Below the pieces are notes generated by a model. The model did no database searches. It saw only the letters and a list, made by a program, of their open reading frames with translations, and was not told the DNA's origin. 44,102 bases of DNA from UHGV virus genome UHGV-0016039; one strand, given 5' to 3'. Source of the DNA: a virus. The first letter of the stretch is position 1. Each line of letters starts with the position of its first letter. Position numbers and translations under genes: made by a program. This document shows positions 9,540 through 43,946 of the stretch, one piece after another.

Positions 9540-9565
9540 GGGTGTCCGGTTTGGACGCCCTTTTT
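9540..9565 (+). terminator. hairpin plus T5 run (terminator for upstream operon or attenuator in 5' leader of gene at 9585)
   Basis: gggtgtccgg ttt ggacgccc followed by ttttt, starting about at the predicted TSS. Confidence 0.45.
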
Positions 9566-9584
9566 AATACCTGGAGACAGTGAT

Positions 9585-9827
9585 ATGAAATCATTATTTT
9601 TCGACTACGACGGCGACCTTCGATTTTGGGTGCTCCTCACCCTCATGATTGCCGGCTGTATTGGCATACCTTCGACGGCTATTTACTACACGGAACGCTA
9701 CGAATGCAAGACCGTGTATGCCGAGCAAACCGGACGCAATACCCAATGGCGCTATGGTGTCTGCTGGGTGGAGATGAACGGTAAATTTATCCCACGCAAT
9801 GAAATCCGCACCACGGAGATTAAATAA
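9585..9827 (+). CDS. small membrane protein (80 aa, one TM helix)
   Basis: ATG 9585 preceded by GGAG; FWVLLTLMIAGCIGIPSTAIYY. Confidence 0.5.
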   Translation: MKSLFFDYDGDLRFWVLLTLMIAGCIGIPSTAIYYTERYECKTVYAEQTGRNTQWRYGVCWVEMNGKFIPRNEIRTTEIK

Positions 9828-10286
9828 GTGAAAATTTTACAAGAAGAGAAAAATTACGGGGCCGCGCAATGCCTCGAAGCCCGCGAACAGGCCGAACGCG
9901 CGAACGCGCTGGCGGACACCTACCTGGCGAGCTATGAAGGCGAGGAGAAGGCGCGCAAGGAATTAGAGGAGCGCTTCGATCTGCTGTATGAGTTGATGGG
10001 TATTATGCAGCGCACCGGATACACCACCACCGTCGCGCTAAACCGCATCACTGCCGAAGGTCTGCGCGAGCATTGCAAACGTGCCGAGGCGTACGTGCGC
10101 CCCAAAGGTCACCAGTCTAAGATCGACCGGAAAGACCTGGTGCTTATGGCGTGGCGCGCAAACGGTAGCTACTACTCCGATTGCCGACCGCTTAGCGTCG
10201 AGGGGGGAAAGCGCCTGCAACGCGTTCTAAACAGTGGTAAGAAAATTGCCCTGTACGCGATAGATCAAGACCATGCAGAAGAGTGA
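9828..10286 (+). CDS. hypothetical protein (152 aa), helical/coiled-coil N-terminus
   Basis: ORF track; GTG start directly after upstream stop. Confidence 0.4.
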   Translation: MKILQEEKNYGAAQCLEAREQAERANALADTYLASYEGEEKARKELEERFDLLYELMGIMQRTGYTTTVALNRITAEGLREHCKRAEAYVRPKGHQSKIDRKDLVLMAWRANGSYYSDCRPLSVEGGKRLQRVLNSGKKIALYAIDQDHAEE

Positions 10287-10758: not shown

Positions 10759-10963
10759 CCGCGACCCTGCGGTCGTAGACCGAATGCAAAAAGACTACGG
10801 CATTGACCCGCGGCGCAATCATGTGGTGCGCGCATCTCATCCCGGACGCATCATGGGCCTTGACCTCAACGGTTGGCTTGTCATGACTCAGCGTTGCCAT
10901 TTCGTATGCAACTCCTTTACTGCGCGAAGCGCCCGACAGACACTTATTGAGAGCTTAAAATGA
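10739..10963 (+). CDS. hypothetical protein (74 aa)
   Basis: TTG start at 10739, 6 nt after AAGGAG; ATGA overlap with next gene. Confidence 0.4.
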   Translation: MNILIVDRDPAVVDRMQKDYGIDPRRNHVVRASHPGRIMGLDLNGWLVMTQRCHFVCNSFTARSARQTLIESLK

Positions 10964-11430
10964 AATTACTGATTTGCGATTTGGATGGCGTTATTAATGG
11001 TTCAAGCGATGCGCGTGCCGACCTGGTTCCGGGCATAAAAACAAAATCCACCTTCTGGGCGAAGTGGCACAAAGCGCACGTCCGCGAAGACCTGAACATG
11101 GATATGCTGCCGCTGTTGCGCATGTACAAAGAGCAAGGCTTCGAGATCGCGTATCTGACAAACCGGCAGCTAGAATGTTGGGACACCACCGCCGAGCAAT
11201 TGGAGGTCTTCCCGGTAGGCAGGTTATTCATGCGCCACATGCTGGACGACACCCCGCCGCCAGAGTTTAAAGCGTGCGCTGTGTTCAAAATGGTCTGCTA
11301 TGCGGACGTATCGGAACTGGTCATCATTGAAGACTGTCCGAAGAACATCGCGGCAATTCGTCGGGCGTGCAGCGATTTAATCCCGAAAATTTACGCAATA
11401 AACGTTGCAAAATTTACTTGCAACCAATAG
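10960..11430 (+). CDS. HAD-superfamily phosphatase-like protein (possible nucleotidase)
   Basis: motif I LICDLDGVI, motif II AYLTNR, acidic motif IIEDC. Confidence 0.6.
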   Translation: MKLLICDLDGVINGSSDARADLVPGIKTKSTFWAKWHKAHVREDLNMDMLPLLRMYKEQGFEIAYLTNRQLECWDTTAEQLEVFPVGRLFMRHMLDDTPPPEFKACAVFKMVCYADVSELVIIEDCPKNIAAIRRACSDLIPKIYAINVAKFTCNQ

Positions 11431-11441
11431 GTTGGTTGCAG
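11418..11441 (+). promoter_or_regulatory. perfect 10-bp inverted repeat TTGCAACCAA-tagg-TTGGTTGCAg (candidate operator/promoter element)
   Basis: palindrome read directly from sequence, 50 bp upstream of ATG 11493. Confidence 0.45.
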
Positions 11442-11492
11442 TATCTTAATCACGTCGGGGGCAATACCGCCTCCACTAAAAAGGAAAACATC

Positions 11493-12014
11493 ATGAAAGC
11501 ATACGAATACTGCAAAAACGCCGCTACCACTATGGAACAGCGCGGGAAAGAAAACGGCTATGACAACGCGAAAGAAGAACGCAGCGCTAAACAGATCGCC
11601 GCCGTGTTTAACGCGCTTACCGGGCGCGACCTTACCGAGCAAGAAGCCTGGACCTTCCTGATCTGTCTGAAGCTGGTGCGCCAGAACCGTAAGCACCAGG
11701 AAGATAACATCGTGGATCTGGTGGCGTATGCCGCCCTGCTGGGCGAGTCTTACATGACCGTGCATGACGAGATTCAGATCGACACAACGGCAGCGCAATA
11801 CGGCAGCCTAAAAGGTTGGCCCATCGCCACCGCAGGGACGTGGCATCCTTCGTCATCGGTGGGTAAGACTGTCAATGCCGAAATTAGCGGTATTGCGGGT
11901 CAAGAATTCCAGCCTATGGTCGTGCTCACCGGCGAAGACGGATCGAAAATCTGCATGACGCAGGAAGATTTCCGTATCATGGAAAAAACACTGGTGACTA
12001 GTGCACTTAAATAA
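11493..12014 (+). CDS. hypothetical protein (173 aa)
   Basis: ATG 11493 preceded by AAGGAA; ORF track frame 11367..12014. Confidence 0.55.
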   Translation: MKAYEYCKNAATTMEQRGKENGYDNAKEERSAKQIAAVFNALTGRDLTEQEAWTFLICLKLVRQNRKHQEDNIVDLVAYAALLGESYMTVHDEIQIDTTAAQYGSLKGWPIATAGTWHPSSSVGKTVNAEISGIAGQEFQPMVVLTGEDGSKICMTQEDFRIMEKTLVTSALK

Positions 12015-24548: not shown

Positions 24549-24617
24549 TATGCAGTCCCCTTTTTTATGCAGTTGCCGATGGATATTGTATCAGCGATTT
24601 CAAAACAAACCTTATTC

Positions 24618-24932
24618 AGTCTCAGACGAGGGGGGCCATTGACCCCCGTCTAGTCTGAAAGACTGGGGTGCTGTCCCGCTGTCCCGATCGGCTAAAAACC
24701 GCGGCAGCACTGGCGGGGACGGGGTGCTGTCCCGCTTTGTCCCGCCCCTTGTTTGTCCCGCTTTTTGTCCCGCTTACTTTATGCAATAAAACTGCATATA
24801 TATGCGTATTTATGGGGTGAGACAAAACGGGGCGTCCCGCCTGTCCCGTTTTGAGTTTATGCAATGAAAGTGATTAGATATGCGGTTTTACAGAGGCGGG
24901 ACAAAACGGGACGTCCCGCCTGTCCCGCTTCA
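24618..24932. repeat. composite repeat copy A: GC hairpin, GTCCCGC/GCGGGAC iterons, TTTATGCA-N-TGCAT palindromes, internal ~75 bp tandem duplication
   Basis: near-identical to 41078-41260; at least 8 GTCCCGC copies. Confidence 0.7.
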
Positions 24933-25609
24933 TTATGCGGGGTTCTGCTGCGCCATTTCATCAAGCGCGATTCGTTCCATTAGCTTGATATCTTTAAACG
25001 CGCGCTGCTCGTTTTCGATACCGTGCATCTTAAATAACCACTCCAACACGCCGTAGTCGATGCCGTATGCGCCACCAAATCCGGTGCGCCATTGCGTGGC
25101 GCAATCTGTAAAGACTGCGACTACCTTCGCGTTGTCGGGCCATAGCGCAACAGGCGGACAAACATCTTCGGGGGCCGCACCCCATAAACTTGCTGCTAAA
25201 TCTTCGGAGGGGGGCGGCGGGCCATAAAAGCGTCGCGCCGCCTCAATTAGTTTTTTTCACGCAACCCCATCAGTTCGAGATAGTACGACGTGTGGAACAC
25301 ACCGAACGCGCGGGGATAGTTGACCACCAGGCGGCGGACGTTCTCCGCGTTAAATTCGTCCGGCAGATTCCAGCCTTCAGCGACGTGCATGATGGCCTCA
25401 ACCATAACGTTAAAGCCGTCCGGGTCATTGTCGTCATATTCCGATAGCTTTCGTTCGGTGTCCTGCATGGTCTGCGAAAACTCGTCGATAGGTCGGTGGC
25501 GGACGGTAAACGTCATCTTGCCCGGTTCGTTCTCGCCAGGGCGCGGGATCTCAATCGGCAGCTTAAAGGTTGGCTTAGGGTCAAGTGTGAAGAGTGGTGC
25601 TTTAGCCAT
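24933..25609 (-). CDS. tail assembly chaperone G-T fusion, product of predicted -1 ribosomal frameshift (105-aa T extension)
   Basis: slippery A_AAA_AAC at 25250-25256 in G frame; -1 frame open for 105 codons to TAA at 24933-24935. Confidence 0.6.
25247..25609 (-). CDS. tail assembly chaperone, lambda G-like (0-frame product)
   Basis: ATG 25609 (ORF track starts at GTG 25657); acidic protein between major tail and tape measure. Confidence 0.75.
   Translation of the reverse strand: MAKAPLFTLDPKPTFKLPIEIPRPGENEPGKMTFTVRHRPIDEFSQTMQDTERKLSEYDDNDPDGFNVMVEAIMHVAEGWNLPDEFNAENVRRLVVNYPRAFGVFHTSYYLELMGLREKN
25250..25256 (-). other. -1 programmed frameshift slippery heptamer A_AAA_AAC
   Basis: seven consecutive A (T on + strand at 25251-25257) ending G ORF as cgt gaa aaa aac taa. 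Confidence 0.65.
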
Positions 25610-25623
25610 CGTAATATTCTCCA

Positions 25624-25647
25624 ATAAAAAGGGGCCGTGCTGGCCCC
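25624..25647 (-). terminator. rho-independent terminator downstream of major tail protein gene
   Basis: ggggcc-gtgct-ggcccc followed by ttttt on - strand. Confidence 0.5.
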
Positions 25648-25677
25648 ATATTATCACTCGCTATTTAAGCCACCAAA

Positions 25678-34374: not shown

Positions 34375-35760
34375 TTAGTAGAAGTCTACGGTAGGAACAG
34401 CGGCTATTGGACGAATCACAGGGAACAGGTGCGCAATAGGGTAGCCCGCCGCGTCATTCATGTGGTCCACACCGGCAGTTTTATCCGGTTCGCCTTTCTT
34501 AAGGTCGTACACCTGCTGTTCCAGACATTTCGCTAGTGTAGGGCATTTATCCAGGTTGACAAAATACTGGCGCACGCCCTTCGAGTTGCACATCATCGTA
34601 TTCATCGCGATCAATCGGTCTTTCACAGGTGGGTTAACGCTGTCATATTCCACCTCGAAGCCAGCGTCTTCTAGTTGTGCGATATCGGACGACGACGCGT
34701 TGACCGTCTTGCGGGATTTGCCGCTGCTGTCCGGGTAAACGACAACACGACCGGCAGCGCAATGCTCGGGGTATCGCTCCTCGATCGCTTCAATCATAGC
34801 TGGGGTGTCAAACAGGTCCACAAATTCATCCACTGCGTGAATCTCGTCGCGGAACTCTTTGTTCTCCGTGATGCGCTGCCGTCTTACATACACGACCGCC
34901 GCCATTTTCGTGACGTTAAAGTCCATACCGATAATCAGCGTGTCTTCCGGCTGCACTTCTTCGGTGCTGGCATTCTCCTCGCGATTAAACATCTTGTACA
35001 CCGCGCCCGACGTAAGGTTAACAAACAGGCCGTTCAGGTACGCATCAATCAGGTTAGCCGGGTACTGACTGCGAAGCGTGTCGATAAAGTCTGCCGGTAA
35101 ATGGTGGTTGTCCGTGGTCTTCGCCCGGATCAACCGTTTTTGGTTATCCTTCTCCACTTCGAAAATCTGGTACATCGCCCGGAAGCCTTCAGGCGTGGAC
35201 ACGATGACAAACTGGCGGACCAGGCCCGCACGCAGACGACCGAGCAATTTGTGATATGCCGCCATTGCAACGTCTTGCTTCGTGGTGTCGAACTCGTCGG
35301 CAACAATCCACGCGGCGTTAACCCCGATCAAGCGGGTGTAGTTCTCCATTGACTCACAGATAACGCGTGTCCATTTGCCTTTCACCAGCACACTATAAAT
35401 CTTGTCCTGCTTGTTGAACTTCCACCGGAATCCAGCCTCGTCGAAAGCCTTCTCAAGCTCCGGGTACATGATTTTAACCAGGAGCGGAATGGTCGGTTCT
35501 GTCACGATGCCGTCATGGCCGGGGTTAAGTGTGAGAAGCTGGATGACCTTGCGTGCCGCAACCCACGACTTGCCGCCACCGAAGCCGGAGCAAAGGCCGA
35601 GGATTTTGGTCTTCGTGTCGCGCAGTAGTTCTACCTGGTGCGGGAGACAATCAGGCTGATACAGGCGGACGGCCTGCGCAACGCGTGTAGGGCGTGGCGG
35701 TCGGTTTCGCTTTGCGATCGCGCGTTCAAGTGCGCGGTGTTCTGCCGCATAGTTACGCAT
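34375..35760 (-). CDS. terminase large subunit
   Basis: Walker A LCSGFGGGKS; 461 aa; TAATG overlap with small subunit. Confidence 0.88.
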   Translation of the reverse strand: MRNYAAEHRALERAIAKRNRPPRPTRVAQAVRLYQPDCLPHQVELLRDTKTKILGLCSGFGGGKSWVAARKVIQLLTLNPGHDGIVTEPTIPLLVKIMYPELEKAFDEAGFRWKFNKQDKIYSVLVKGKWTRVICESMENYTRLIGVNAAWIVADEFDTTKQDVAMAAYHKLLGRLRAGLVRQFVIVSTPEGFRAMYQIFEVEKDNQKRLIRAKTTDNHHLPADFIDTLRSQYPANLIDAYLNGLFVNLTSGAVYKMFNREENASTEEVQPEDTLIIGMDFNVTKMAAVVYVRRQRITENKEFRDEIHAVDEFVDLFDTPAMIEAIEERYPEHCAAGRVVVYPDSSGKSRKTVNASSSDIAQLEDAGFEVEYDSVNPPVKDRLIAMNTMMCNSKGVRQYFVNLDKCPTLAKCLEQQVYDLKKGEPDKTAGVDHMNDAAGYPIAHLFPVIRPIAAVPTVDFY

Positions 35761-36311
35761 TACTCACCCTGGCCTTTGCCGGTAGGTTCGACAACGACGT
35801 CGCCGTTATCATCTTCGTCGTCATCCAGCGGAGCATCGTCTCGAATGCCGTGGTTGGCTTTAAGCAGGAACGTAGCGAAGCCCGCCGCGATGGTCACGCC
35901 GCCAGCTTCCATCAGGAAAGTTTTCTGCAACTCCATAGCGTCCGCCATCGCTTCGGCGAACTCCTCATGTGCGCGCGCCCAGCGGTACAGGCAGGCAACG
36001 CCCACGCCAATTTCTGCGGCAAAACGACCAAAGGTCGGCATCTTGTTTCGAGGTATGACTTGCGCAGCGCCCTTGTCGGAGTAGTTGATCTGCCAGGCTA
36101 CGGCATCGGCGAAATAGCGACGAAGCTGGTCGCAATACACGGTGCGGTAGTCGGTCGGGCGTCCACATTTGCCGCCTTTACGGCGCTTGCCGTATTCGAT
36201 CTCAGGTCCGAGATTGGTATGTTCGGTTTGCTCGCCTGGTTTACGGCGCGGGGTAACTGCTACTCGTCCGTCCAGTTTGGCACGACGGCCCTTAACTTTG
36301 ATTTCTGCCAT
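35760..36311 (-). CDS. terminase small subunit (start uncertain: 36311 or 36332)
   Basis: HTH-like segment FGRFAAEIGVGVACLYRWAR, acidic C-terminus; position upstream of TerL. Confidence 0.55.
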   Translation of the reverse strand: MAEIKVKGRRAKLDGRVAVTPRRKPGEQTEHTNLGPEIEYGKRRKGGKCGRPTDYRTVYCDQLRRYFADAVAWQINYSDKGAAQVIPRNKMPTFGRFAAEIGVGVACLYRWARAHEEFAEAMADAMELQKTFLMEAGGVTIAAGFATFLLKANHGIRDDAPLDDDEDDNGDVVVEPTGKGQGE

Positions 36312-36428
36312 GATATAAGCCCTTTTATGCATATGCGCCGACCATCGGCAACATAGGAGACGGCCCAGCCATCTAAGGGGGATTATAACAGGCACAAAAA
36401 AGCCCACCAAATCGGCGGGCTGGGTGGG

Positions 36429-36641
36429 TTAAACGGCGCGACCGTAGTATCTGGTCAACATGCTTTCTACTTCGCTTATAGCGCCTTCTGTGTAGCGTAT
36501 TTGCGATAGTATCTCGATCCGCTCGCTAATAGACATGCCTATTGCCGCTGCCGTTCGCTCGAATCGGCGCAAGCCTTCAAGCTGTTTGCGTAGCTCTTTC
36601 AGGCGGGTGGCCTGCGTGCTCATGAATACTTGTCTGATCAT
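36429..36641 (-). CDS. hypothetical protein (70 aa)
   Basis: ATGA overlap with upstream phosphoesterase gene. Confidence 0.45.
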   Translation of the reverse strand: MIRQVFMSTQATRLKELRKQLEGLRRFERTAAAIGMSISERIEILSQIRYTEGAISEVESMLTRYYGRAV

Positions 36642-37780
36642 TTCAACATTTCCGGGCTAATGGTTAAGCGCGCTACTTCGCCGTAGTTGGCGCTATAGGT
36701 GATGACGTTTGCACTGCGACCGGACATCCAACCGCCACGGCTTGCATATGCATCTTTCGCGGCAAGCGTCCGGTGCTGTTCAACAATCATGTTGCGGGAT
36801 TCAACAATCTTCTGGTGGTGCAAGTGGCCTACGTGCGCGTAGCTGTACTCACTTGACCCGAAAGCCTGTCTGAATTTAGAAATCATGACAGGCTCGATGG
36901 CGTCAAATCGTGCTTTATGTCCGTGGTGGAAGAACAGCGTTGTTTTACCGTGCTGCACCATTTTGTAGACGTCCGGGGATGTGTCCACATCAACGCGCGG
37001 CTCGTTCTCGTACAGGGTATTGAACATCTCAGCCAGCCAAATCATACCGGACTCGTCATGATTACCCTGGACGATTAGTAGTTTGACCTTATGGTGTTTT
37101 TGCAGCGCCAGTTCAACCACGTTTCGCACCATGCGAATCATGTAGCGGACCAACTTCTGGTAGCGGGTATCGGCATCCAGTACGTGACCGCTGGCAGGGG
37201 TAACGGCATCGAGGCTGTCAAAGTGGGCCATATCACCGAGGATATTGATTACGGCAGTGCCCGCGTCCGGCGCGCGTGCGAAGGCTTCGACAAACCAGCG
37301 GTAGAACAGGTCTTCGGCGATTGCCATATCCCAGTCCTCGCCAGTCTCCTCGCCCCATGCCAACATGCCCAGGTGGAAGTCTGACACGGTGTACAGGTTG
37401 AGCAAATCAAGCGCCTGGATCGGTACTGGCGAGGCTTTTACTGGCGCTGCCGGTGTGATTTCGCTGTTCATACCCTCGACAACAGCGCGCATAGCTTCAA
37501 GCTGGCGCTCCTTGTCCTGCTCAGTGATGACCCAGGACATGACCTCTTCGCCATTGCCGCGCACCAGGGCCGATACGCGCTTAACCCCAAAGCCATCGGC
37601 AACTCGCTTGCGGATTACGGCATCGTTGCCGTGTCCAATGCCTTTTTTCGCCAGGCGGGCTTTCCGCATATAGACATTGCGTAGGGCAATCCCGTATTTC
37701 TTCGCAATATCTTTCGAGGTAGTGCCGGATTGTAATTCAGCAATCAATTGCTCGTCTGTGATTTTAGTTTGCGGGTGCAT
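36638..37780 (-). CDS. calcineurin-like metallophosphoesterase (SbcD/Mre11-like motifs) with N-terminal HTH
   Basis: VSDFHLG, GDMAHFD, GNHDE, HHGH motifs; N-terminal TTSKDIAKKYGIALRNVYMRKARL; ATG 37780 with AGGAAG. Confidence 0.7.
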   Translation of the reverse strand: MHPQTKITDEQLIAELQSGTTSKDIAKKYGIALRNVYMRKARLAKKGIGHGNDAVIRKRVADGFGVKRVSALVRGNGEEVMSWVITEQDKERQLEAMRAVVEGMNSEITPAAPVKASPVPIQALDLLNLYTVSDFHLGMLAWGEETGEDWDMAIAEDLFYRWFVEAFARAPDAGTAVINILGDMAHFDSLDAVTPASGHVLDADTRYQKLVRYMIRMVRNVVELALQKHHKVKLLIVQGNHDESGMIWLAEMFNTLYENEPRVDVDTSPDVYKMVQHGKTTLFFHHGHKARFDAIEPVMISKFRQAFGSSEYSYAHVGHLHHQKIVESRNMIVEQHRTLAAKDAYASRGGWMSGRSANVITYSANYGEVARLTISPEMLK

Positions 37781-37813
37781 ATTAATTAACTTCCTGGTTA
37801 TTGGTCCGAGGAC

Positions 37814-37837
37814 AATATACCACGGTCCCAAGTCAAG
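37814..37837 (-). promoter_or_regulatory. possible extended -10 promoter (TGgTATATT) for phosphoesterase gene
   Basis: rc of 37814-37822 is TGGTATATT; TTGACT-like -35 only 11 bp upstream. Confidence 0.3.
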
Positions 37838-37839
37838 AA

Positions 37840-37867
37840 ATAAAAAAGCCCGGAATTAACCGGGCTT
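37840..37867 (-). terminator. rho-independent terminator ending lysis-region transcript
   Basis: agcccgg-aattaa-ccgggct followed by tttttt on - strand. Confidence 0.55.
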
Positions 37868-37873
37868 GTTAGT

Positions 37874-38035
37874 TTACTCTTCTGGCTCTGCAGGCGGTGG
37901 CGGACTCGGCAGCTTCGCGTCAAAGACGCCTGCATGGCTGATAGTGTCCGCGATGATAGCGCGTGCGCCAGGGTCTTCGGTTTTAGCCAGCGCGGCGAGC
38001 GCGTCAGCGTTATGATCAAGAATGCTTTTTAACAT
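37874..38035 (-). CDS. small hypothetical protein (53 aa, Pro-rich C-terminus)
   Basis: ATG 38035 preceded by GAGGT; read by hand, below ORF-track cutoff. Confidence 0.35.
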   Translation of the reverse strand: MLKSILDHNADALAALAKTEDPGARAIIADTISHAGVFDAKLPSPPPPAEPEE

Positions 38036-38051
38036 ACTGTGTTACCTCGTA

Positions 38052-40918: not shown

Positions 40919-41077
40919 CCAATATTAATCACGCGTATGAAAAAGTTGATCGCTATCTGCTGAATCTGCAAACCGCATTTTTCACTTTCCATTCTGCAAC
41001 TCGCATTGGTTGCCGAGTTCATCGACGACCGCAATTTGCATCATGTTGCCGTGCGGTATGCAATCCTGGATTTTATG

Positions 41078-41260
41078 CAGTCTCAGACGAGGGGGGTGCC
41101 AGACCCCCCGTCTAGTCTGAAAGACTGGGGTGCCGTCCCGCTGTCCCGCTCCTCTGGAAGCCGCGTCATCCGGGGCGGGACGGGGGTGCTGTCCCGCTTT
41201 GTCCCGCCTCTGGTCTGTCCCGCCTTTTGTCCCGCTTGTTTTATGCAGTAAAATTGCATA
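41078..41260. repeat. composite repeat copy B (hairpin, GTCCCGC iterons, ATGCA-N7-TGCAT palindrome)
   Basis: near-identical to 24618-24800 except for a 35-bp substituted core. Confidence 0.7.
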
Positions 41261-41341
41261 ACTATTCACTATATCCACACTACACGGCAACCAATGCGAC
41301 CGACTAAAAGCACTCAAAATGGCAACCAATGCGCGCAGAAT

Positions 41342-43616: not shown

Positions 43617-43946
43617 TTACTTAAAAGTTTTATTATTGCGTACCCAGGAGCGCACTGTGCTCTGATTAATTCCGGTCAACTCGGCAATCATCGCCCACGA
43701 TTTTCCCTCGTCGCGCAAACGTATAACCTGCTTTTTGTATTCTTCCATTTCTTCATTGTGCTTTTGCAGCTTGCTCGCGGCCGTGCCGTTGAGCAATTCC
43801 AGCCTGGCGCGTAATTCTTTCTCGACACTGCGCAGTCGTTCGATTTCAAATAACACCGCCCCCACGGCATCTGTATAAGCCCATGACCGGCTTGTCTCAC
43901 TGCAAACAGTCTTCGTTAACATTTCGATTGCGCCGTTTACATTCAT
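43617..43946 (-). CDS. HTH DNA-binding protein (109 aa)
   Basis: C-terminal HTH-like WAMIAELTGINQSTVRSWVRNN; ATG 43946 with GAGGG. Confidence 0.55.
   Translation of the reverse strand: MNVNGAIEMLTKTVCSETSRSWAYTDAVGAVLFEIERLRSVEKELRARLELLNGTAASKLQKHNEEMEEYKKQVIRLRDEGKSWAMIAELTGINQSTVRSWVRNNKTFK

Follow-up and report, generated by a model that had tools for sequence, protein, structure and literature searches.

A helix-turn-helix-fused metallophosphoesterase conserved in Dhillonvirus and other phages is a candidate DNA-tethered nuclease

The virus genome UHGV-0016039, a stretch of 44,102 nucleotides analyzed here at its full length and called the window below, carries on its minus strand a gene (36638..37780) for a 380-amino-acid protein in which a helix-turn-helix (HTH) domain is fused to a metallophosphoesterase (MPE) domain; we call this protein HTH-MPE. 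The window is a Dhillonvirus genome (HK578-like Escherichia coli siphophages; relatives of 44 to 45 kb) and is collinear over its whole length, in reverse orientation and at about 90% identity, with Escherichia phage Haito_Bas83 (Bas83). A megablast search with positions 36400-38050 returned 159 phage records, nearly all of them Escherichia or Shigella Dhillonvirus, at 90 to 94% identity. Along the minus strand, the genes run from the helicase-primase through small genes, two holins, the endolysin, a small open reading frame (ORF), and a terminator to HTH-MPE, which is followed by a 70-amino-acid ORF, another terminator, TerS, TerL, the portal, and the head and tail genes. A preliminary description made from the sequence had placed the gene between the packaging and lysis modules, and the gene order of the window agrees with this, but as a general trait the position does not hold, since only Dhillonvirus and a small number of other lineages show it.

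The same description gave the coding sequence as 36638..37780, and these limits are retained here. The longest mechanically called ORF (36638..37831) opens with a TTG, but the ATG at 37778-37780 is preceded at a distance of 9 nt by the Shine-Dalgarno sequence AGGAAG (37790-37795) and the near-identical database proteins, Dhillonvirus records among them, are also 380 residues long (95 to 99% identity over the full query), which makes the shorter frame, with its stop codon at 36638-36640, the correct one. The call in the ORF list is matched by a hit to phrog_704 and by these proteins, and the gene is real and strongly conserved rather than a chance ORF.

Judged from its sequence, HTH-MPE is a calcineurin-like MPE with an intact and conserved active site. 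All five motifs of the superfamily (DxH, GDxxD/H, GNH[DE], H, and GHxH) are found in it, and they are 95 to 100% conserved in an alignment of HTH-MPE with 264 diverged homologues, each 300 amino acids or longer (265 rows, 35 to 50% identity). Motif I, SDFHLG (residues 133-138; 37367..37384, on the minus strand like all parts of the gene), holds D134 and H136, present in 264 of the 265 rows; motif II, GDMAHFD (residues 182-188; 37217..37237), holds the bridging D183 (100%) with H186 and D188 (98% each); motif III, GNHDE (residues 239-243; 37052..37066), holds N240 and H241 (both 100%); and motif IV, HHGH (residues 285-288; 36917..36928), holds H286 (100%) flanked by H285 and H288 (95% each). 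These four had been quoted in the preliminary description and all occur in the translation, together with a fifth canonical motif that it had not listed, GHLHH (residues 318-322; 36815..36829), in which G318 is found in all rows, H319 in 96%, and H321 in 99%. The metal ligands, whose loss in homologues had been named beforehand as the thing to look for, are 96 to 100% conserved across the 264 homologues. Between motifs II and III lies a family-specific loop, VTPASGHVLDADTR (residues 193-206; 37163..37204), with the family-wide consensus VTPxSGHxLDxDxR. Conservation in it centers on T194 (100%), L201, D202 (98%), D204, and R206 (95%), and it is mostly unstructured in the predicted structure. 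W83 and R262 (96% each) are further conserved residues specific to the family. The scores with Pfam Metallophos (20.0 bits against a gathering threshold of 21.5) and Metallophos_2 (22.1 against 27) are both below threshold; the family has diverged too far for these models, and only 13 of 40 family members reach an E value of ≤0.1 with them.

An AlphaFold2 model built from a 40-sequence alignment (mean pLDDT of 90.7, pTM of 0.74) places an HTH of the LuxR/GerE type, similar to sigma-70 region 4, at residues ~9-59 (37604..37756). Its helices span residues 9-17, 22-29, 33-45, and 53-59, and the recognition helix, LRNVYMRKARLAKK, is basic. The domain matches the tetrahelical HTH in both sequence and fold: a profile of residues 1-118 matched GerE (2e-4), VraR (7e-4), sigma-H region 4 (1.6e-3), and NarL (3.5e-3), and single family members matched Pfam Sigma70_r4_2 at 1.5e-9 and GerE at 2.4e-8. 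On the strength of profile and model, the N terminus is a genuine HTH of the DNA-binding type, about 50 residues long; the fusion described earlier is thus there, but not the ~100-residue length given for it, because a separate element follows at residues 64-107 (37460..37591). This family-specific connector is modeled as a long beta-hairpin (residues 64-88; strands 64-73 and 79-88) and a helix (90-106/107), has a nearly invariant G77 and W83, and gave no recognizable relative and no structural match. A linker of lower confidence joins it to the MPE catalytic domain (residues 126-380; 36641..37405), which runs to the C terminus with no capping domain, the protein ending at residue 380 directly after the last core strands of the model. 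The MPE fold is a four-layer alpha/beta sandwich, and solved MPEs match the model structurally. Taken as a whole, the architecture of an HTH, a novel connector, and a cap-less MPE core with a conserved extra loop has no characterized counterpart.

In the structural ranking of the model, nucleases came first, by a modest margin. The figures for small-molecule enzymes were 13.7 for LpxH, 13.6 for MJ0936, 12.7 for YfcE, 12.5 for GpdQ, and 12.2 for Rv0805, with 5'-nucleotidases at ~10, PPP protein phosphatases at ~9.4, and the Pseudomonas putida nuclease MPE at 9.3; a predicted structure ranked in this way favors a nuclease, modestly. A Foldseek search of BFVD found the same fold in many phage proteins of ~400 amino acids, some of them labeled "DNA polymerase II small subunit" (DP1-like). 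At the sequence level, the best PDB matches of the catalytic-domain profile were Thermotoga maritima Mre11/SbcD (E = 0.13) and the P. putida MPE, both nonsignificant (E of 0.13 to 0.6). The GDxxH of HTH-MPE aligns with GDLLH of Mre11 and GDFLH of the P. putida MPE, which puts H186 at the equivalent of Mre11 His52.

The resemblance to SbcD/Mre11 suggested earlier therefore stands for the type of motif and fails for family membership. No NCBIfam SbcD model was matched, the E value is about 0.1, and only ~190 of the 320 to 380 residues of Mre11/SbcD align, the capping domain and the C-terminal helices that bind Rad50/SbcC being missing. A Rad50/SbcC partner, which the preliminary description had also failed to see, is absent from the annotation of Bas83, from the ORFs of at least 400 amino acids in the window, all otherwise assigned, and from a Pfam scan of the ambiguous ORFs. 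HTH-MPE is consequently not a member of the SbcCD/Mre11-Rad50 group, and the members of that group, such as T4 gp47 and T5 D13, in turn lack its N-terminal HTH, hairpin connector, and family loop. PdeM, the P. putida nuclease MPE (PDB 6nvo) and a ligase-associated single-stranded DNA endonuclease of the DNA damage response, resembles HTH-MPE in being a stand-alone enzyme that needs no ATPase partner and in the GDFLH and GNHD motifs, and a few lineages likewise have ligase and DEAD helicase genes beside that of HTH-MPE; the score with the PdeM model TIGR04123 was 12.8 bits against a cutoff of 150. The small subunit of archaeal DNA polymerase D, DP1, a 3'-5' proofreading exonuclease, is 15% identical to HTH-MPE. 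DP1 acts together with the large catalytic subunit DP2, for which no gene is annotated in Bas83, and no DP1-like N-terminal domain was detected, the N-terminal element of HTH-MPE matching no known domain beyond the HTH. Among phage enzymes, the MPE Gp48 of cluster A mycobacteriophages also has all five motifs; it is a phosphodiesterase that disrupts host DNA integrity and supports phage replication (PMC12287305), which sets a precedent for attack on DNA by a phage MPE. Gp48 belongs to a separate family, is expressed early, and has no HTH described for it (PMC12287305). We read the cluster A MPEs as nonmatching since Mycobacterium is not among the 10 best-represented hosts in our tblastn search (E ≤ 1e-5).

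Four lines of evidence, namely a structural ranking headed by nucleases, a GDxxH motif of the Mre11/PdeM type, the DNA-binding domain fused to the enzyme, and the DNA-metabolism neighborhoods described below, make a DNA-tethered, partner-free nuclease the best supported of the functions considered, and our tentative reading, held with somewhat less than even confidence, is that HTH-MPE is a stand-alone MPE nuclease tethered to DNA. Among the roles proposed earlier, the evidence favors a DNA substrate and disfavors a protein phosphatase. A Ser/Thr/Tyr phosphatase acting on host or phage proteins, like the lambda phosphatase NinI, would fit the frequent location of the family at the end of nin-like regions: in lambda, the MPE phosphatase gene closes the nin region, next to the gene for the HTH protein NinH. 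However, the PPP signature (GDxHG / GDxVDRG / GNHE) is absent, SDFHLG, GDMAHFD, and GNHDE standing in its place, and one lambdoid-like contig (L091) encodes a small NinI-like MPE as a distinct protein beside HTH-MPE. This is the least likely of the rivals, and we consider it very improbable.

HTH-MPE belongs to a large family. It matches phrog_704 ("DNA repair exonuclease") at E = 4.3e-161, with residues 5-380 on positions 2-390 of the 390-position profile, and 3,600 homologues were found (best E = 2e-247). Among the representatives of 50%-identity clusters, searched exhaustively, 4,632 relatives had an E value of ≤1e-3 and 1,127 one of ≤1e-30, most of them 370 to 420 amino acids long and of the same architecture. 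By tblastn, relatives were present in 2,063 of 50,697 phage records (~4%), in Dhillonvirus, Jerseyvirus, Drexlerviridae, Jedunavirus, Vibrio Schitoviridae, Ruegeria Casjensviridae, and Thermus and Flavobacterium phages. Within the phrog_704 family, whose name is an annotation and which takes in Dhillonvirus, Jerseyvirus, Drexlerviridae, and others, HTH-MPE is a full-length member that differs in nothing, and annotated proteins of many Dhillonvirus isolates are 97 to 99% identical to it; as an object it is already known, an ordinary and well-conserved copy of a catalogued family that holds no surprise for a specialist. In Drexlerviridae the gene is persistent (508 of 522) and lies directly upstream of holin-endolysin-spanin, and where the SH3 gene is lacking, polynucleotide kinase and deoxynucleoside monophosphate (dNMP) kinase genes are the commonest right after it (PMC13164509). 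The HTH is missing in some lineages, with Vibrio phage matches beginning at residue 80 and some cluster representatives being only 274 to 311 amino acids long. Because the active site is invariant and the HTH is variable and sometimes missing, the enzyme activity appears to be the primary function and the HTH an accessory.

The genes around the family vary. We pooled the neighbors of 37 lineages more than 35% apart in the MPE protein and scanned them against Pfam; ORF calling was crude and the counts are only indicative, and BLAST clustering of the neighbors was uninformative because they are too diverse. Upstream were NinG and EndoVII (twice each), RusA, SSB, primase, and DNA polymerase A. 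The late genes found downstream were lysozymes (three to four), large terminases (five: Terminase_3 twice, Terminase_6N twice, and GpA once), and small terminases (two), and alongside them a PNKP-type HAD 3'-phosphatase, DNA ligase, DEAD helicase, dGTP diphosphohydrolase, DUF3310, and DUF6378 occurred twice each. In individual phages, the order is HNH endonuclease, MPE, holin in Tlsvirus; promoter, Imm-like gene, MPE, 76-amino-acid ORF, terminator in Jerseyvirus, on the opposite strand within the tail module; MPE overlapping pseT in Jedunavirus; MPE, 3'-phosphatase/kinase, dNMP kinase, portal in Yersinia phage 526-2; holin, lysozyme, MPE, 55-amino-acid ORF, Nu1/GpA terminase in metagenomic contig L088; and DnaB, NinB, a RecA-dependent nuclease, the small NinI-like MPE, HTH-MPE, two small genes, lysozyme in the lambdoid-like contigs L090 and L091. 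A polynucleotide kinase/phosphatase and dNMP kinase lie directly downstream in Jedunavirus, Yersinia phage 526-2, and many Drexlerviridae. The indicative common theme is a position at the junction of DNA-metabolism ("nin-like") and late genes with a recurrent link to enzymes of nucleotides and DNA ends. A fixed link to terminase or packaging was rejected, as the gene is prelysis in Drexlerviridae and within the tail module in Jerseyvirus and the terminases are of varied types (Nu1/GpA, Sf6-type, and Terminase_2/3/6). Two of these neighborhoods hold further features. In L090/L091, positions 9565-9927 encode a 120-amino-acid protein with an Acb2/Tad1 hairpin (an immune-nucleotide sponge domain) right after the lysozyme gene and ~1.4 kb downstream of the MPE gene. 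In the Jerseyvirus Salmonella phage Shelanagig (L004, 4683-4926), the MPE is 75% identical to HTH-MPE and shares a good sigma-70 promoter (TTGCAT-N17-TATTAT), and by prediction a transcript, with a superinfection-immunity membrane protein similar to Imm of T4, the unit forming an opposite-strand island in the tail gene module.

Such neighbors bear on two further explanations. The first is that the enzyme heals nucleic acid ends, working with a phage kinase/phosphatase and ligase to mend tRNA or DNA ends cut by host nucleases. The MPE domain of bacterial Pnkp is a 2',3'-cyclic phosphodiesterase/3'-phosphatase, and a polynucleotide kinase/3'-phosphatase gene stands immediately downstream, sometimes overlapping, in the Jedunavirus, Yersinia, and Drexlerviridae cases above and in 2 of the 37 metagenomic lineages; 2 of the 37 have DNA-ligase domains next to the gene as well, and elsewhere in its genome our phage encodes a small "DNA ligase" and a "polynucleotide kinase" of the HAD type. 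Yet in the window these two genes are ~25 kb away in the other arm, the linkage to kinase or ligase is confined to a minority of lineages, and the HTH points to double-stranded DNA and not to tRNA, so that we regard end healing as quite unlikely.

The second, an anti-defense or nucleotide-pool phosphodiesterase, would have as its substrate not polymeric DNA but small molecules, be they cyclic (oligo)nucleotide immune signals or (deoxy)nucleoside tri- or monophosphates. Neighbors with roles in nucleotide metabolism are frequent (dNMP kinase, dGTP diphosphohydrolase, NT5C, and HAD phosphatase), the cassette is autonomous and moron-like, and both the Jerseyvirus cotranscription with an Imm-like gene and the Acb2/Tad1-hairpin protein 1.4 kb downstream in L090/L091 would suit such an activity. 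Against this, a small-molecule enzyme would have no obvious use for a DNA-binding HTH, and nucleases top the structural ranking. No PADLOC model matched HTH-MPE or the 70-amino-acid ORF at an E value of ≤1. The phage enzymes known to degrade signals have other folds than the MPE fold, Acb1 being a 2H and Apyc1 a metallo-beta-lactamase protein, and near-universal persistence in Drexlerviridae suits a core function better than accessory counterdefense. We therefore think this explanation improbable.

The gene is also set apart in its transcription. Upstream, an intrinsic terminator (37846..37867, minus strand; 8-bp stem with 6 GC pairs and a T-run) ends the lysis cassette, and another (36401..36421, minus strand; 9-bp stem with 6 GC pairs and a T-run) ends the unit formed by HTH-MPE and the 70-amino-acid ORF; both are annotated in phage WFI. 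The ORF (36429..36641, minus strand) is Dhillonvirus specific (phrog_20931, E = 9e-48) and overlaps the MPE stop codon in an ATGA, so that the two genes are translationally coupled. A conserved 26-nt block, GGACCGTGGTATATTGTCCTCGGACC (37803..37828, minus strand), contains a predicted extended -10 element, TGgTATATT, at 37822-37814, its promoter function being read from the consensus only; four dhillonviruses share this candidate operator without a single difference, whereas their DNA upstream of the block varies. The preliminary description had given the gene a promoter and terminator of its own, in agreement with the predicted extended -10 and the terminators at 37867-37846 and 36421-36401, but the TTGACT that it took for a -35 cannot serve as one because it is only 11 nt from the -10. 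A scan for two-hexamer consensus promoters found none in the region; the extended -10 of TerS described below is missed by such a scan. In the other aligned dhillonviruses (L001, L002, and L087), a ~40-amino-acid ORF (Bas83_0069) with the promoter TTGACT-N18-CATACT separates the lysis terminator from the MPE promoter; the window is without this ORF, so its terminator abuts the MPE promoter block (37803-37900).

Downstream, TerS has a perfect extended -10, TGTTATAAT, at 36390-36382 (minus strand), the only one in the window, which follows directly after the terminator at 36421-36401 and lies ~70 nt before the TerS start at 36311. In the mechanical TerS ORF (35760-36410, minus strand), the TTG at the start overlaps the terminator upstream; TerS most likely begins instead at the ATG at 36311 (MAEIKVKG...), with the 183 amino acids annotated in WFI and Bas83. 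Going by these elements, the packaging/late operon probably has its own -35-independent promoter. Three terminators lie in the region, but extended -10s precede both HTH-MPE and TerS and antitermination is not required for the late genes. Flanked by terminators, with its own extended -10 and with TerS served by another promoter, the MPE gene and its overlapping ORF form an autonomous unit of promoter, genes, and terminator. Coupling to a small ORF recurs elsewhere: in 13 of the 37 lineages the MPE stop is overlapped by an ORF on the same strand or has the start of one within 15 nt, the overlap being a 4-nt ATGA in 10 of them, and these 13 small downstream ORFs are mutually unrelated. We rejected the downstream ORF as a conserved partner, since the 70-amino-acid ORF is dissimilar to the 76-amino-acid ORF of Jerseyvirus and to the small ORFs of other lineages.

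The promoter block raises the question of a transcription factor with an enzyme domain, whose HTH would bind operators including the block at its own promoter and would autoregulate or activate late transcription, the MPE domain being regulatory or sensing. An HTH of the LuxR/GerE/sigma region 4 type, as found in transcription activators, would fit this, and so would the recurrent position of the family, which resembles that of lambda Q: in 508 of 522 Drexlerviridae, the gene directly precedes holin-endolysin-spanin (PMC13164509); in L090/L091, it comes after the nin-like region and before the lysis genes; and in L088, the window, and a marine clade, it is directly upstream of TerS. The identity of the 26 nt around its own -10 in four dhillonviruses despite rearranged flanks points the same way. 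However, the invariant part of the protein is its catalytic residues and not the HTH, which some lineages lack altogether. In L088 and L091, the gene overlaps the downstream late genes and so would be cotranscribed with them rather than lie upstream of a regulated promoter, and the Jerseyvirus copy occupies the opposite strand within the tail module. The block occurs once in the window, even with three mismatches allowed, so that no regulon of HTH sites is visible there and such a regulon was rejected; TerS, moreover, has its own perfect extended -10. We consider a primarily regulatory role unlikely.

Under the preferred reading of HTH-MPE as a DNA-tethered nuclease, the protein would be expressed from its own extended -10 promoter together with the 70-amino-acid ORF, up to its own terminator. 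Its C-terminal 255 residues would form a two-metal phosphodiesterase site, probably of the Mn2+ type, with D134/H136, D183, N240, H286, and H319/H321 as metal ligands, H241 as the transition-state histidine, and H186 at the position of the nuclease-specific histidine of Mre11. In place of a Rad50/SbcC ATPase clamp, the LuxR/GerE-type HTH of the protein itself would hold the enzyme on DNA by way of the hairpin/helix connector. It could then cut or trim DNA as a single-stranded DNA endonuclease and/or a 3'-5' exonuclease, like Mre11, SbcD, PdeM, and DP1, and might serve phage DNA metabolism either by breaking down host DNA for nucleotide salvage or by trimming ends or branches before packaging. 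Several points weigh against this reading. The core fold of an MPE does not reveal its substrate specificity, similarity in sequence to Mre11/SbcD/PdeM is nonsignificant (E of 0.1 to 0.6; 12.8 bits with TIGR04123), and the loop at residues 193-206, which has no counterpart in known nucleases, could form a different substrate pocket. The phage encodes a PD-(D/E)XK exonuclease and a gp2.5-like annealing protein, so that a second nuclease is not obviously needed for recombination. A fusion of an HTH to an enzyme can signal autoregulation instead of substrate tethering, and a nuclease of host DNA would have to spare phage DNA, for which there is no evident way. In addition, a full-text literature search found no functional study of the HTH-MPE family.

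A more speculative extension, which we hold to be rather doubtful, is that the family constitutes a self-targeting, Rad50-independent, Mre11-like nuclease for host-chromosome degradation and nucleotide salvage in T1-, HK578-, and Jersey-like siphophages, the LuxR-type HTH directing or licensing the cutting, and that it would also be a source of products sensed by immune systems, such as methylated deoxyadenosine monophosphate (dAMP). A defense system that senses methylated dAMP from phage-induced chromosome degradation acts against the T1-like phage Bas12 (bioRxiv 10.64898/2026.01.15.699771), which is compatible with host-DNA breakdown by T1-like phages; the HTH-MPE gene is not implicated there. 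If HTH-MPE were a partner-free, DNA-tethered nuclease, it would show phages swapping the Rad50 clamp for a simple HTH and could identify the enzyme with which T1-like phages break down host DNA, a matter of consequence for nucleotide salvage, for the frequency of transduction, and for the triggering of defenses that sense products of DNA degradation. Drexlerviridae, Dhillonvirus, and Jerseyvirus, which are much used in phage therapy and in model collections of the BASEL type, carry the family as what is effectively a core gene, and its name in the database, "DNA repair exonuclease," is a guess about an enzyme that is widespread, core, and easy to test.

Searches of the whole window for tRNAs and Rfam families gave no match. 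The ~700 bp at 24550-25246, between the start of the tape-measure gene (24548) and the tail-chaperone ORF (25247..25657), contain no convincing ORF; this gap holds a tandem-like repeat of ~80 bp (24766-24848 and 24842-24927, 80% identity) and a direct copy, 191 bp long and 85% identical, of positions 41073-41260 within the early-region ORF 40982..41329. On the plus strand, the loci at 10960-11430, 9828-10286, and 11367-12014 correspond to the "polynucleotide kinase," the "DNA ligase," and a neighboring DUF6378 ORF. The "polynucleotide kinase" of relatives, at 156 amino acids, has only a weak HAD-phosphatase match, and the 152-amino-acid "DNA ligase" has no Pfam match; the neighboring ORF of 215 amino acids carries DUF6378, a domain also found beside HTH-MPE genes in other phage lineages. 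Finally, positions 43617-43946 (minus strand) encode a 109-amino-acid early protein, called "transposase" or "Gam" in relatives, with a C-terminal HTH (HTH_23, HTH_28, and Sigma70_r4_2) of the same Pfam types as the N terminus of HTH-MPE, and this protein may be the early regulator of the phage.

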